61,523 bases of DNA from Stylophora pistillata (Eukaryota), in the NCBI RefSeq assembly GCF_002571385.2, contig NW_019218229.1, positions 184,257 through 245,779 of the forward strand, read 5' to 3'. Position 1 is the first letter of the stretch. Every line of letters begins with the position of its first letter. Shown one piece after another: positions 15,154 to 22,155 of this stretch. The position numbers and the translations under genes were made by a program. The notes below the pieces were generated by a model that saw nothing but the letters and a program-made list of their open reading frames with translations, had not been told where the DNA came from and ran no database searches.

Positions 15154-15375
15154 CTAAGAATGTTTCTTGAACGGAGTATCTGATGAGGAACTGATCTCTT
15201 CAGACGAAGCTCGTAAATCAGATGAACTCAGACAGTACAGTTTCTTCTGCCATCTCTTAATTCCCTTTGCGGGGCACTTCAAACTGGGTGGCGTCCTTAC
15301 TCTGCAATCTTCTATTGCCTCAATATTTTGAAAAATGACTTTAAAAGCCTTCTGCATTTCTCTTTCGAAATCCAT
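15154..15375 (-). CDS. 73-aa microprotein, MDFE family member 1
   Basis: ATG-initiated and clearly homologous to ORF 21943..22155 (MDFE[RK]EM..[AS]FKVIF.NI..[IL]E and G[IV].R.Q[KR]KL). Confidence 0.7.
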   Translation of the reverse strand: MDFEREMQKAFKVIFQNIEAIEDCRVRTPPSLKCPAKGIKRWQKKLYCLSSSDLRASSEEISSSSDTPFKKHS

Positions 15376-16899
15376 CTTCTAAGACTCCTACCGACTCTTT
15401 GGTTTTGCATGGGTTCATTCAAACCTCTTCTAAACGACTAGACGGTTCTAAAAATACTACCATTACTTAGATCTTTTTAGAGGACCACTCATTGTGATTG
15501 AGGTAGTCACGAGAAATCTAACCAACCAATAGTAAGGCTTTATTTGTCCTAAGTCATGCAATCATTTCGCTATTCTTCGTTGGCCTGACGTTCACCCATT
15601 TATGGTTAAGTGCACATAATGAATAGATTTTTGTATGTTTATGAATCACTCGTCTAAAATCTGATTAAATGTGCGATAAACATATACAACCGTAACCGCT
15701 ACTCTACTCCTCCTGTTTTCTTCATGTTCTTTAGTCTAGAGCATAAAGTTCTTCTGTCATATAGAACCATTTAATGTACAACCTTTTGAGGCTTTTTTCT
15801 TTAACCCCACTCGCCCTGAGGGTTCTTTATTAAGTAACATGAACAAGCCTGTTATGGTAATCTCATAGCCTTTTATCATCACATGGACGTCATTTCTCGG
15901 CCATTTTGATTGCAGCTTTTTTGGTTATAATTGCTAAATGTATGGGTGGTTTTACTATGATTTGTTACGAACAAAAACCAGCTCTACCCACAAAAGCTCT
16001 TAACTCCGCCCTGAACTACAATAGATACAAAACACCTATTGAACCGTGGGTCCGGAGAAAGCTGAAAGAAACTGGCTCAAAACCGGGTCTGACTAGTTTG
16101 AGAATGTAGAACTCAGCATTTCTACGTTTGAAAACCATACAAACTGTAACCTATTATTCGCGCTTCTCAATACAAAGAATCACATTAAGAACACCTGATT
16201 TCTTCTAAGAATAGGACACTATCAATATAGGTGCCCTTGAGCTACTCAATACTTGATTTGAGCAGAATTTAACTATACTTGAGATGACAAAAAATATATT
16301 CATTTAATTTAAATAAGGAGTGATCACGTCTCACCACGCTACTGTTTCCTTTTTGAGATCTTGACCTGTTTCCATCAAATCTTGCATCTTTAATTGATGT
16401 CTTTCCGGCAGTAAAAAAGAAAAGATAGAAGGCAAGTTCATCTTAAGCCCACCACTCACTAATGATTCACTTCACCTGGTAGTAAATTGCTGCTCAGTTC
16501 AGTCTTTCGGTGTTCCTTAATCCTTTAATTCCCATGGGTGACCAAGACAGAATTTCTCCTTACAATAGCAATATGATATCAAGCAGACAAGTGATGAGAA
16601 TAAAGAAAAATATCAATCAGGGGATTATTAGTTGATCTAATACCAAATTCTCTGAACTATATGGCAAGCAGATTTCGCTGAAATCCTGAGATCAAGGAAC
16701 CGTTGACCGAAAACTCACCCACAATATCTCTTAAGGTTGTCTCGTACACTAAGTTTACTCGTTCTTTTTTTCGACAACCGTTCTCGAAACGGCAGTGAAC
16801 AACTAGGTCAACTAACGTGCGCCAGTTACCAGAAAAGAGAACGAATCTAGTAAGTACTCAGGAGACGAGTGATAATAAAAAGTGATTGAATTCTTGTGA

Positions 16900-17822
16900 G
16901 GTTAGATAGAAACTTTATTAACGTGTCAAAGAACCTTCTAGTTTGGGAGATATCCCATACTAGTGTGGGGACACAAATAATATGGATAAAAATTATTTAC
17001 AAAGAATATTACCTACTTAAGAATAAAATTAAGTCATATCATGTATGAAAAAATATGAAATGAATTAAGAAGTACATAGAGCACAGCCCCTGCAGCCATC
17101 ATCTAAAAGGGAGCTGAGGTCACGCTTACGTATGCGGTTTTTGAAACTAGCTAATGTTGTGGCTGATCTGTCATAAGTTGTCAGTTTACTCCATAATTTA
17201 GGTCCTAAATAGCGTAGTGAATGTTTGCCGTAAGTTATTGTGTTGTGTCTAGGAATAGAAAAGTCGGCCTGTCTTAAATTATAGGAAGCGTTGTGTTTCT
17301 GTAATATATTACAAATATTCAAGGGGCTAAGGTTGAGTTTAACTTTGTACATTAAAATGCATATATCCTGTAAGCGTCTGTTTACTAGCGAAGGTAAATT
17401 AGCTTTCTGCAGCAAACGTTCACAGGTGGAGTGTTTATCTTTGAATACAGCCCTTAGGCCTCTTTCTTGAACTCTCTCCAGTCTGCGACTATCTCTAGAT
17501 TTACAAATATGCCATGTGAGATGGCAGTAGGTTAGATATGGTAGAATGGCTGCCTTAAAAAGTTGTAATTTTGCATTTGTTAGAAGCAAGTTGCGGAGTC
17601 TCATAAGCACACCAATCCTTTGACTAGCTTTGCTACAGATAGTATTTATATGATTATTGAAGTTCAAATTTGAGTCAATTGTGACTCCGAGAAGTTGGAG
17701 AGTAGCGGTGGTGTTGATTTTCTCTTTGTTTACTAAGATAGCGCATTCTTCGATGTTATTTTCAGAGTTGATGTTGCTACCAATAATTAAGGTTTGGTAT
17801 TTTTTAAGGTTGTGATCAAAAG
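16900..17822 (-). mobile_element. 5'-truncated non-LTR retrotransposon (CR1/L2 group), end of RT ORF plus 3' UTR
   Basis: LLGVTIDSNLNFNNHINTICSKASQRIGVLMRLR..LERVQERGLRAVF..YGKHSLRYLGPKLW; ends in CRGCALC*, followed by AATAAA and a short simple-repeat tail. Confidence 0.9.
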
Positions 17823-17959
17823 TTTTTAAGCAGTCGATAATCAATGAGTTCAGAAAAGATGATTTACAAATAATTAAGAATTTCAATTTACAAATTTGAA
17901 GATGAATAAGATCCAAGAGTATTATTTCATTGTTCAGTGCAAGGGTCTAATTATGGTAT

Positions 17960-18235
17960 ATATGTGCACGATCCTCGCAGTAAAGCACTATTTAAGCAAT
18001 AGTTAAAATTCAGGCCTGTACGTGATTCGAACCACTGATCTCTGCGATACTAGTGCAGCGCTCTACCAATTGAGCTGACAATCCAACTGGGAGCAGGCCA
18101 TTAAATTAATTCGACATAAACCCGTAAGATGAGGAATCAAACATAAAGAATATATGAAAGACACATATCTGAACTGCGCTTATGAAACGTATAAGTGCAC
18201 GATCATCGCAGTAAAGCATTATTTAAGCAATAGTG
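17960..18235 (-). mobile_element. tRNA-Thr-cored repeat element, copy 1 (core flanked by a direct repeat)
   Basis: Reverse-complement tRNA-like core at ~18011-18084; segment GTGCACGATC.TCGCAGTAAAGCA.TATTTAAGCAATAG occurs at ~17965 and ~18195. Confidence 0.8.
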
Positions 18236-18617
18236 AAGATGATCTAACAATGATTGACTTGAAATGTTCATCTCATACTTAATCTTTATTTTGCCATTGT
18301 ATATTCCACGCTCCGGAGTATGTACGTAACATGAAGGGCTAAGGCCTGATAACTACGCTGAAAGAAATAATGTTTACATTGCACTGAGGGAAGGTCGTGA
18401 TTTATTATCGCTGGGGGAGGGGAGGGGAGAGTGACTGGTCCCTAAAGTTTGAAATTTTGTCCCTGCCTTATGTCCCCATATCAGGCCCTTCGATTCTTCA
18501 ATTTCCTACCCTCTAGTAACTAGTTTCACTTCCTTCGTTAAAACAAAAGGAATCAGTTTAAAAGAAAACTTACTTTAAATTTACTCCTGCATAACATGGT
18601 TACACACTTAGCTGAGC

Positions 18618-20737: not shown

Positions 20738-21118
20738 ATACGTATGATGCACGATCCACGCAGTAGAGAGCGCTATTTATGCAATAGCGAAAATCAGACC
20801 TGAAAGGATTGTGCATCATACGTATCTATAACCGCAGTTCAAAATATATGAACTTCATATATTCATCGTATCTGATTTATCATCACGGGTTTATTACGAA
20901 TCAACTTAACGGCCTGCTCCCAGTTGGCTTGTTAGCTCAATTGGTAGAGCGCTGCACTAGTATCGCAGAGGTCAGTGGTTCGAATCCCGTACAGGCCTGA
21001 TTTTTTTCAGGTCTGATTTTCGCTATTGCATAAATAGCGCTCTCTACTGCGAGGATCGTGCATCATACGTATCAATAACGGCAGTTCAAAATATATGAAC
21101 TTCATATATTCATCGTAT
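20738..21118 (+). mobile_element. tRNA-Thr-cored repeat element, copy 2 (long inverted repeat plus internal direct repeat)
   Basis: ~20738-20806 is the reverse complement of ~21005-21072; ~20811-20870 is directly repeated at ~21058-21118; tRNA-like core in between. Confidence 0.85.
20926..20998 (+). tRNA. tRNA-Thr(AGT)-like pseudogene / repeat core
   Basis: Acceptor stem GGCTTGT/ACAGGCC, A box TAGCTCAATTGG, anticodon AGT at 20959-20961, B box GGTTCGAATCC. Mismatches in the T-stem and anticodon stem and its position inside a dispersed repeat argue against a functional tRNA. Confidence 0.6.
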
Positions 21119-21152
21119 AGAAAATTATATAACACGGACTGGGGTGAAACTG

Positions 21153-21565
21153 CACGTGAGTTACGTAATGTAAAATGGTATGGCATTCATGTGCGTCACT
21201 TGACATTCCACTAAATTTCTGACAGAAGCCTCAGAAAAAAAAATTAAAGGTGAACTGTAATTTTCAAGTGCAGGTTAATATGGGATCAAGCTAAAAAAAA
21301 GTGTTAAATACTAGTCAATTTATAAATCTTGAGGCCGACCGCCCAACCATGAAAATTTCTTCATGCTCAAGGTCACTCTATTTTATTCACTGAATGAGGG
21401 TATTTAATGAAAGAAATCGTTCTCACGAAGCATCAAAATTTTGATTGATGTGTTTTAACTTTTTTACACATCAGTCCTTTAACATATCACGTGTCTACAG
21501 ACTGAAAGGTTTCACATGGTTTCTAGCGGTCGACGAGCGCTTTGCACGTGAACAACAGTTACGTG
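21153..21565. promoter_or_regulatory. Cluster of three E-boxes (CACGTG), a PAR-bZIP/D-box palindrome (TTACGTAA) and a half-CRE
   Basis: CACGTG at 21153, 21488 and 21545; TTACGTAA at 21161; CGTCA at 21194. Function is inferred only. Confidence 0.35.
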
Positions 21566-21942
21566 CGTGACTGAACCCATTCAATTTTTGTAGCAAAAAA
21601 GAATGTTTATATCATGCGTTAATATTACATAATTAATCTGATGGTAAACAGCATGATTAAATGGCTTTCTCTTTCTCTTGAATAAGTTGAAATAGATCCG
21701 TATTTTCACTAGGCGATTAATTAGCTCCTTTGAATATAATTCGTCCATCAGATCAAGAAACAGAAGTTGTTCTGACAGCCGCAACTCTTTTAGTTCTCTG
21801 AAGTCAGCCAACAAAGATTCCGCACACTTTCCAAGTTAGGACGCTCTTCGCATCCATGATAGAGACAATGTGCTACAGTCTTAATGAAGTAAATGGAAAT
21901 TCCTTGTACGACATGAGCTATATCAGTTCTACACATCCATCT

Positions 21943-22155
21943 TTACACACTAAAACAGCGTCCTTTGGCTGATCTGTGCTGTTCTTCGAACTCGGTGGAA
22001 ACTCCGTTTACCGGTGCACTAAGTTTACGTTGCTGTCGACTAACTCCATTCTTTGAATGATTCCAATAGACAGACGTCTTACGTTTGGTTTCCAGAACTT
22101 TGATGTTGTGAAAAATAACTTTAAAAGACTCATACATTTCCTTTTCAAAGTCCAT
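21943..22155 (-). CDS. 70-aa microprotein, MDFE family member 2
   Basis: Paralogue of 15154..15375; protein-level similarity persists despite DNA divergence. Confidence 0.7.
   Translation of the reverse strand: MDFEKEMYESFKVIFHNIKVLETKRKTSVYWNHSKNGVSRQQRKLSAPVNGVSTEFEEQHRSAKGRCFSV

Follow-up and report, generated by a model that had tools for sequence, protein, structure and literature searches.

Neurogranin and PEP-19, which are calpacitins, and PKI are signalling regulators of 60–80 amino acids with one short functional element, and the small AKAPs AKAP7-alpha and smAKAP are short proteins built around one amphipathic helix. Inhibitor-1 and DARPP-32 are RVxF-type regulatory subunits of protein phosphatase 1 (PP1), and class I SH3 ligands form a well-known class of docking motif. 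Close to 90% of the validated PP1 regulators contain an RVxF motif (PMC13545437; bioRxiv 10.64898/2026.09.09.750541), and the first of these sources also describes regulators in which a further motif, for example MyPhoNE, accompanies RVxF. The 14-3-3 sites of modes I and II overlap kinase sites (PMC12459269). Here, we describe two short open reading frames (ORFs), ORF1 and ORF2, within a 61,523-nucleotide stretch of the Stylophora pistillata genome (contig NW_019218229.1, positions 184,257 to 245,779 of the forward strand; hereafter the window). Both are almost certainly protein-coding genes, and they belong to a real, undescribed and mostly unannotated coral family with a shared predicted N-terminal helix.

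The family resembles several known systems in part. Like PKA-switched 14-3-3 clients, for which PMC12459269 gives RxxpSxP, it has putative tail sites such as RKLSAP in ORF2 and RRGSAP, RSASLP and RSTSEP in relatives, but its sequences are not homologous to those of any known client, and the site is missing from ORF1. Like the RVxF-type PP1 subunits, among them MYPT1 (PMC13545437), its members are small and predicted to be disordered and combine a docking motif with putative basophilic phosphorylation sites, subfamily IV carrying RRKVRFADD, RKVSF or KRVVF; in this family, however, a long stretch separates RVxF from the preceding helix, which is not of the MyPhoNE type, and there is no conserved inhibitory phospho-threonine. 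The hydrophobic spacing of the helix is similar to that of small AKAPs, whereas the pattern of large and small residues seems not to fit, the N-termini of ORF1 and ORF2 lack a lipid-anchor motif and no homology match was found. Unlike calpacitins, the family has no IQ motif (Phe or Tyr stands at position 15 in place of Gln, and the Pfam IQ model matched none of the 34 proteins scanned), and unlike PKI it has true Ser sites in place of the pseudosubstrate Ala. By analogy, its members may work like small disordered phospho-signalling regulators, although they belong neither to the calpacitins nor to PKI. Coral 'dark gene' families, as described in PMC13044578, are likewise conserved, lack an assigned function and have expanded through lineage-specific duplication, but most of the present family is missing from the public protein sets that were checked.

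Two related ORFs with separate transcripts

ORF1 (15154..15375) and ORF2 (21943..22155) are single-exon coding sequences on the minus strand, with 73 and 70 amino acids before the stop codon and the N-termini MDFERE and MDFEKE, respectively; a preliminary description, made from the DNA letters alone, had noted this pair of same-strand ORFs of similar length. The plus-strand frames over both contain many stops. The two proteins are 45.7% identical across their first 46 residues (tblastn in the window, E 6e-9), and their pair score of 90 stands against 43 for the runner-up among the 9870 pairs formed by the window's 141 ATG ORFs of 40–120 amino acids. At the DNA level, the two loci share a single stretch of 56 nt (78.6% identity) at the ORF start, and their flanks and untranslated regions (UTRs) neither align to each other nor have further flank copies in the window. 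Because DNA similarity ends 56 nt into the ORF, the two are not a repeat. The alternative named in the preliminary description, a dispersed repeat or transposon with similarity running on into the flanks, was rejected given the 56 nt in common and the lack of flank copies in the window. The ORF2 alleles P0004, P0011 and P0012 are intact at 70 amino acids each. The start codons of ORF1 and ORF2 are preceded by a purine at −3 and followed by G at +4.

RNA evidence over positions 7800–23300 came from two raw-read runs and from the contigs of two poly(A) runs. Each ORF has its own stranded, unspliced transcript of ~1 kb that covers the whole ORF. The ORF1 transcript (14240..15420, minus strand, approximate ends) has a short leader and a 3′ UTR of ~0.9 kb; contigs from the poly(A) runs span 14329–15456 and 14408–15381, and a few reads extend to ~15750. 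Finer read mapping over 14100–16060 showed a drop in depth at ~15420 and an end near 14240 (14232–14297 bin), just past an AATAAA poly(A) signal (14259..14264, minus strand), with neither splice joints nor variants in the RNA reads of that region. The ORF2 transcript (21360..22277, minus strand, approximate ends; AATAAA at 21382–21387) is represented by contigs at 21087–22277 and 21398–22150, and the stranded depth of its bin (17.3 versus 1.2 and 10.3 versus 0) has the same orientation as that of the minus-strand neighbours. Bins 10385–10901 and 11936–13486 were empty or almost empty, and this silence argues against DNA carry-over.

Two other gene structures were rejected. An upstream exon spliced on at 15381 can be dismissed, as the 20 loose letters at that contig end are Illumina adapter. 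Membership of either ORF as an exon in the neighbouring genes with a CRYLR motif was dismissed since the finer mapping shows no joints at ORF1 and, over the wider region, the contigs run unbroken through both stop codons, with no joint to the neighbours among those listed (92 further ones aside).

Conservation of the N-terminal region

A metagenome scan using peptide patterns inside codons 2–22 yielded 12 loci, 11 of which have ORFs of 63–81 amino acids from M-D-F to the stop, the twelfth belonging to a longer subfamily. The disruption in relatives that was expected of a spurious family is seen in none of the 11 MDF-start loci. These relatives sit on other animal-like contigs, one of which is syntenic: L009 keeps the order CRYLR gene, neighbour D (see below), MDFE gene. 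The near-identical records L005 and L006 hold two copies each, 3 kb apart. A purine occupies −3 in 13 of 13 starts.

For codons 2–22, 12 sequences were compared, leaving out L015 (one-codon insertion), L006 (duplicate) and L016 (other subfamily). The pooled ratio of nonsynonymous to synonymous differences per site (pN/pS) was 0.17–0.18, pN was below pS in 64 of 66 pairs, and differences at the three codon positions were 0.13/0.09/0.33. The other five frames gave a pN/pS of 0.37–1.39, with stops in 4–11 of the 12 sequences, and identity was 0.33 in the 30 nt before the ATG versus 0.83 in the core. A dN/dS-type check, as proposed in the preliminary description, comes out in favour of coding, with the bias of the search patterns included. 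Beyond codon 22, pN/pS was 0.41–1.09 over 12 pairs and significant in seven; constraint outside the search patterns was found for ORF1–L007 (0.55, p 0.0009) and L003–L016 (0.43, p 4e-6). The purifying selection originally proposed for the small-protein family is strong in the first ~22 codons and weak in the tails, and the pair represents one of four or five subfamilies. The second shared block, G[IV].R.Q[KR]KL, is indeed present in both proteins, but from codon 23 onward the two show no significant constraint (pN/pS 0.80, Fisher p 0.13). What recurs around it across the family is a basic-basic-x-Ser site, to which the block forms the approach.

The predicted amphipathic helix and the wider family

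The family has in common a predicted amphipathic helix, [FY]E..M..A[FL]..I[FY].N[LI]..[IL], which occupies residues 1–25 of ORF1 (15301..15375, minus strand; placed by pN/pS, hydrophobic moment and family profile) and of ORF2 (22081..22155, minus strand; placed by AlphaFold2 and hydrophobic moment). Among 71 non-redundant members its consensus is [FY]E[KRE][EA]M..A[LF]..IF.N[LI]..[LI]E, with N17 in 100%, I14 in 98%, M7 in 94% and E4 in 91% (alignment anchored on I and N, which failed for one of 171 sequences). AlphaFold2 modelled ORF2, with 66 sequences, as one helix over residues 3–34, with a predicted local distance difference test score (pLDDT) of 95–96 for residues 1–20, followed by an unstructured tail (pLDDT near 52). 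The hydrophobic moments of ORF1 and ORF2 are 0.64 and 0.47, versus 0.25 and 0.22 after shuffling, and together with the AlphaFold2 model they uphold the amphipathic N-terminal helix noted in the preliminary description. Its length fits the 14–18 residues required of AKAPs.

An iterative search of the 398-Mb Stylophora genome, plus fetched stretches, identified at least 17 family reading frames: two in the window, five at C49, six at C127 and one each at C55, C17, C20 and C695, most of them in three tandem clusters. A profile search returned 42 representatives at 50% identity (50–152 amino acids), and a second one, in which the best 7988 candidates were scored, returned 118 proteins of 80–295 amino acids, which all lack both a precomputed Pfam domain and an informative name. 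A 25-position profile made from 30 MDFE-type helices alone scored 12 of the other 15 members from this genome above the best of 15,000 shuffles. No relative was confirmed among the 84 pattern matches in prokaryote collections or the 325 in viral ones.

The C49 cluster comprises five helix paralogs and one ORF (L026:2931–3320; L027:82–687, 2601–3155 and 7395–7661; L028:1232–1459 and 3540–3860). Its member at L027:2601–3155 has RRVSAP repeats and the tail but no in-frame helix, and a relative of it, P0093 (295 amino acids), has three RxVSAP repeats. Paralogs combining the helix with RVxF form a tandem cluster at C127 (L058:1057–9260, L059:2351–5708) and also occur at C20 (L062:4547–4999) and C695 (L061:5485–5838); on sequence grounds, these paralogs are candidate new PP1 regulatory subunits. 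In one C127 copy, an early TGA after 51 codons leaves RVxF behind the stop.

Database comparisons gave no described relative. Pfam returned nothing over the cut-off for ORF1, ORF2 or 22 relatives; PDB sequences gave no match over the cut-off (best E 0.019, partly to a His-tag linker); Foldseek with the single-helix model gave nothing under E 5; and the ESM Atlas gave no usable feature match, its structure matches resting on a model of pLDDT 0.48. Rfam over 14000–23000 gave two tRNA-like matches only. The complexin N-terminus, the calcium-channel AID, BH3, GoLoco, IQ and FAM122A were considered as resemblances and dropped because key residues are missing. We found no paper on the family in the literature searched (the supplementary tables of PMC13044578 and PMC8162421, possible member lists, lay outside this search), and five of its motif strings did not occur in the papers listed, where the hits were chance matches to 'crylr'; its gene identifiers gave no paper.

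Tail motifs and the ORF1 upstream module

The tails differ between subfamilies and carry short motifs. Among the 71 members, RxxS/TxP occurs in 35 (shuffles 4.1, maximum 12), the PKA-like basic-basic-x-S/T in 42 (22.3 in shuffles) and the SH3-class-I-like [RK]xLPx[VILAP]P in 13 (shuffles 0.1, maximum 2). RVxF (basic-basic-V-x-F) is present in all seven intact members of the C127/C20/C695 subfamily (IV; shuffles 0.03, maximum 2), and a 40-residue helix-region query without RVxF recovers the same seven loci. In ORF2, RKLSAP (residues 43–48; 22012..22029, minus strand) makes Ser46 a putative target of basophilic kinases; with its +2 Pro the site is 14-3-3 mode-I-like, and a basic site with +2 Pro is found in 8 of the 10 ORF2-like tails examined, ORF2 included. 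RVRTPP of ORF1 (residues 25–30) fits the R-3/P+2 pattern and is common only to P0029. KVIF of ORF1 and ORF2 fits a loose RVxF pattern, but lies within the predicted helix; the tails of both lack RVxF. L009:10001–10219 and L013:1153–1398 carry an (S/T)ETQT stretch after RRRLS, which we take to resemble the LC8 dynein-light-chain motif and which may be a fourth tail motif.

A conserved module lies 131–185 nt before the ORF1 ATG (15506..15560, minus strand) and contains TGACT(C/T)A, ATTGG and TCTCGTGA, the first of which is presumably AP-1-like and the second a CCAAT box. Among 12 upstream regions, it is 75–82% identical to its equivalents at L005a, L009 and L013 (E 4e-7 to 2e-5). A quick tree puts ORF1 with other sequences than these three, so that its orthology can be assigned only tentatively.

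Annotation status and neighbouring genes

Neither ORF1 nor ORF2 is in NCBI or UniRef. The ORF1 cluster has three members, from Logan only; the exact ORF2 sequence is absent from a collection of 15 billion sequences, and all members of the ORF2 cluster come from Logan/ENA. The window also encodes neighbour D (257 amino acids, C-terminal CRYLR motif; 18618..19391, minus strand), a gene whose synteny with an MDFE gene is kept in L009, and neighbour E (347 amino acids, CRYLR motif; 8204..9247, minus strand); these are separate genes, each with its own transcript contigs, as judged from the joints listed (92 further ones aside). The public 584-residue model PFX17846.1 (window 9253–18687) joins the first 235 residues of D to E, with a 9433-nt intron that encloses ORF1, and is a wrong fused gene model. 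Annotation pipelines have missed both genes, as the preliminary description anticipated. Among the family sequences looked up exactly, the only NCBI record is PFX26379.1, a 146-residue C127 member named 'hypothetical protein'.

D and E are two of five single-exon minus-strand ORFs of 196–347 amino acids that form a second orphan family amid the MDFE genes (8204–9247, 18618–19391, 29972–30691, 33447–34118 and 36597–37187), marked by LPPI/LPDI and by a [CI]RYLR motif at the C-terminus; it is syntenic in L009 and has no Pfam match. A dispersed repeat derived from tRNA-Thr, with very high RNA depth, occurs at 20738–21118, 17959–18240 and 58637–59196, with tRNA calls at 20926–20998 and 58759–58831, and is probably of the short interspersed nuclear element type. 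A repeat of ~430 nt at 11342–11773, with inverted ends (11342–11369 and 11745–11772) and also very high RNA depth, is probably similar to miniature inverted-repeat transposable elements. The minus-strand ORFs 17065–17946 and 24178–24702 have no Pfam match and presumably resemble reverse-transcriptase fragments of retrotransposons without long terminal repeats. Also on the minus strand are exons of a PAN-domain gene (38822–41491) and of a Fringe-like glycosyltransferase (55975–56673).

Discussion

The separate transcripts, the intact relatives and the amino-acid conservation of codons 2–22 are observed, and both ORFs are probably translated. We judge it somewhat probable, from the sequences, that the family members are small phospho-signalling adaptors or competitors, in which the shared helix docks one conserved partner and the tails carry regulatory input. 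Residues 3–25 are predicted to form a two-faced helix (F3, M7, A10, L/F11, I14, F15, I/L18, I/L21), and since E4 and N17 beside this face are near-invariant, a specific partner would suit better than non-specific packing. Because the paralog tails carry RxxSxP, RxLPxxP or RVxF, different paralogs would bring different enzymes or readers to the same partner: PP1, SH3 proteins or, once the tail has been phosphorylated by a PKA-type kinase, 14-3-3. ORF2 would be switched through phosphorylation of Ser46 followed by capture by 14-3-3, and ORF1, which has no Ser46-type site, may be mostly a helix-only competitor, possibly signal-induced through its AP-1-like/CCAAT upstream module. More tentatively, and with a good chance of being wrong, stony corals may possess a combinatorial adaptor code, largely overlooked by annotation, in which the invariant helix addresses a single hub protein and at least 17 tandem paralogs compete for it, each delivering PP1, 14-3-3 or SH3 proteins; ORF1 and ORF2 would then be minimal competitors, induced by signals, through which the hub is reset.

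A number of points speak against this interpretation or reduce the weight of its evidence. The evidence for ORF1 and ORF2 is at the level of RNA and sequence, and the helix partner is a postulated one. Because peptide patterns lying in codons 2–22 served to pick the loci, the core pN/pS errs on the low side, and the pairs compared are not independent. In the tails, ORF1 and ORF2 show no significant constraint, the L005b–L008 pN/pS reaches 1.09, and frameshifts, which the tails tolerate, separate L005a/L010 from L009/L013 and also occur in L008 and L015. Three of the 15 own-genome members fail to beat the shuffles with the MDFE-only profile, and the quick tree rests on few columns, with 34 of 68 inner branches unresolved. 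The longer ORF1 leaders contain two out-of-frame ATGs in weak context, at 15410 and 15418. The motif counts take in related sequences, a kinship that the shuffles leave uncorrected, and the RxxSxP/RRxSAP count is inflated because the profile of the 118-protein search contained the RRxSAP region. The Ser46 site of ORF2 has K at −2 instead of S and is not strictly mode I, and RxxSxP at the family position is absent from ORF1 and from all tails of the ORF1 clade (0 of 9).

Other explanations start from the same helix. The whole family could consist of PP1 regulators, with the helix as a second, MyPhoNE-like PP1 contact or with the in-helix KVIF/RVIF as the RVxF motif. The RVxF in seven of seven intact subfamily-IV members, the KKVRF fused to the helix start in the C17 member, the known pairing of RVxF with second motifs and the presence of [KR][VI]xF at positions 12–15 in 21 of 35 Met-start helices, those of ORF1 and ORF2 included, would all suit such a role, which we nevertheless regard as improbable: KVIF lies within a confidently predicted helix, whereas RVxF binds in an extended form; F15 is swapped for R, S or Y in several relatives; an RVxF-like stretch precedes the helix in only 4 of the 40 members with an N-terminal extension; and neither the Arg nor the last aromatic residue of the MyPhoNE consensus is present in the helix. 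An AKAP-type anchor for the dimerization/docking (D/D) dimer of a PKA regulatory subunit, or for another D/D dimer, is a less probable role still; it would make the proteins micro-AKAPs with PKA, PP1 or 14-3-3 sites. The amphipathic helix has a suitable length and a 1-4-5-8-9-12 hydrophobic spacing, PKA-like sites are enriched (42 of 71 versus 22), the genome has D/D domains of both the RI and the RII type, and some AKAPs are known to bear RVxF motifs as well; yet large residues (L/F, I/L) stand where AKAP helices usually have Ala or Ser, a polar one replaces Val or Ile, and no AKAP family or structure matched. A complex prediction of ORF1 residues 1–32 with a pair of coral RII D/D domains, run without alignments or folded controls, gave a score of 0.06 and a mark of 0.34 and counts neither way. 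A separate observation concerns the PKA subunits themselves: L045:1468–2583 encodes an apparently intronless RII-type regulatory subunit with the inhibitor site RRRAV, which we take to be a pseudosubstrate as in RI, instead of a phosphorylatable Ser.

The helix might also have no single outside partner and instead form a short coiled coil with itself or with a paralog, or bind membranes. A heptad-like M7/L11/I14/I18/L21 pattern with a conserved Asn and a wide hydrophobic face points this way, and tandem clusters would supply co-expressed partners; about three heptads only are available, however, and the polar or acidic E4, N17, frequent E6 and E22 would disfavour self-pairing and be unneeded for lipid, making this reading, to our mind, rather unlikely. 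That the ORFs are untranslated or decaying relics (noncoding RNAs, pseudogenes, exons of neighbours or pieces of repeats) is very improbable and already largely refuted. Their shortness, missing annotation and frameshifted tails would fit, as would the early stop in one C127 paralog, but change in the core is dominated by the third codon position (0.13/0.09/0.33), the alleles are intact, the window holds no other flank copy and the transcripts have no joint to the neighbours among those displayed.

For coral biology, the family of helix-bearing proteins adds an expressed, conserved multigene family that is mostly missing from current protein sets. Because most of its genes are absent from the records, they are likely uncounted in reference-based transcriptome and single-cell analyses. 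A shared helix with swappable PP1, 14-3-3 and SH3 motifs lends itself to direct and cheap tests and would provide a clear example from nature of signalling that is rewired when short motifs are exchanged.

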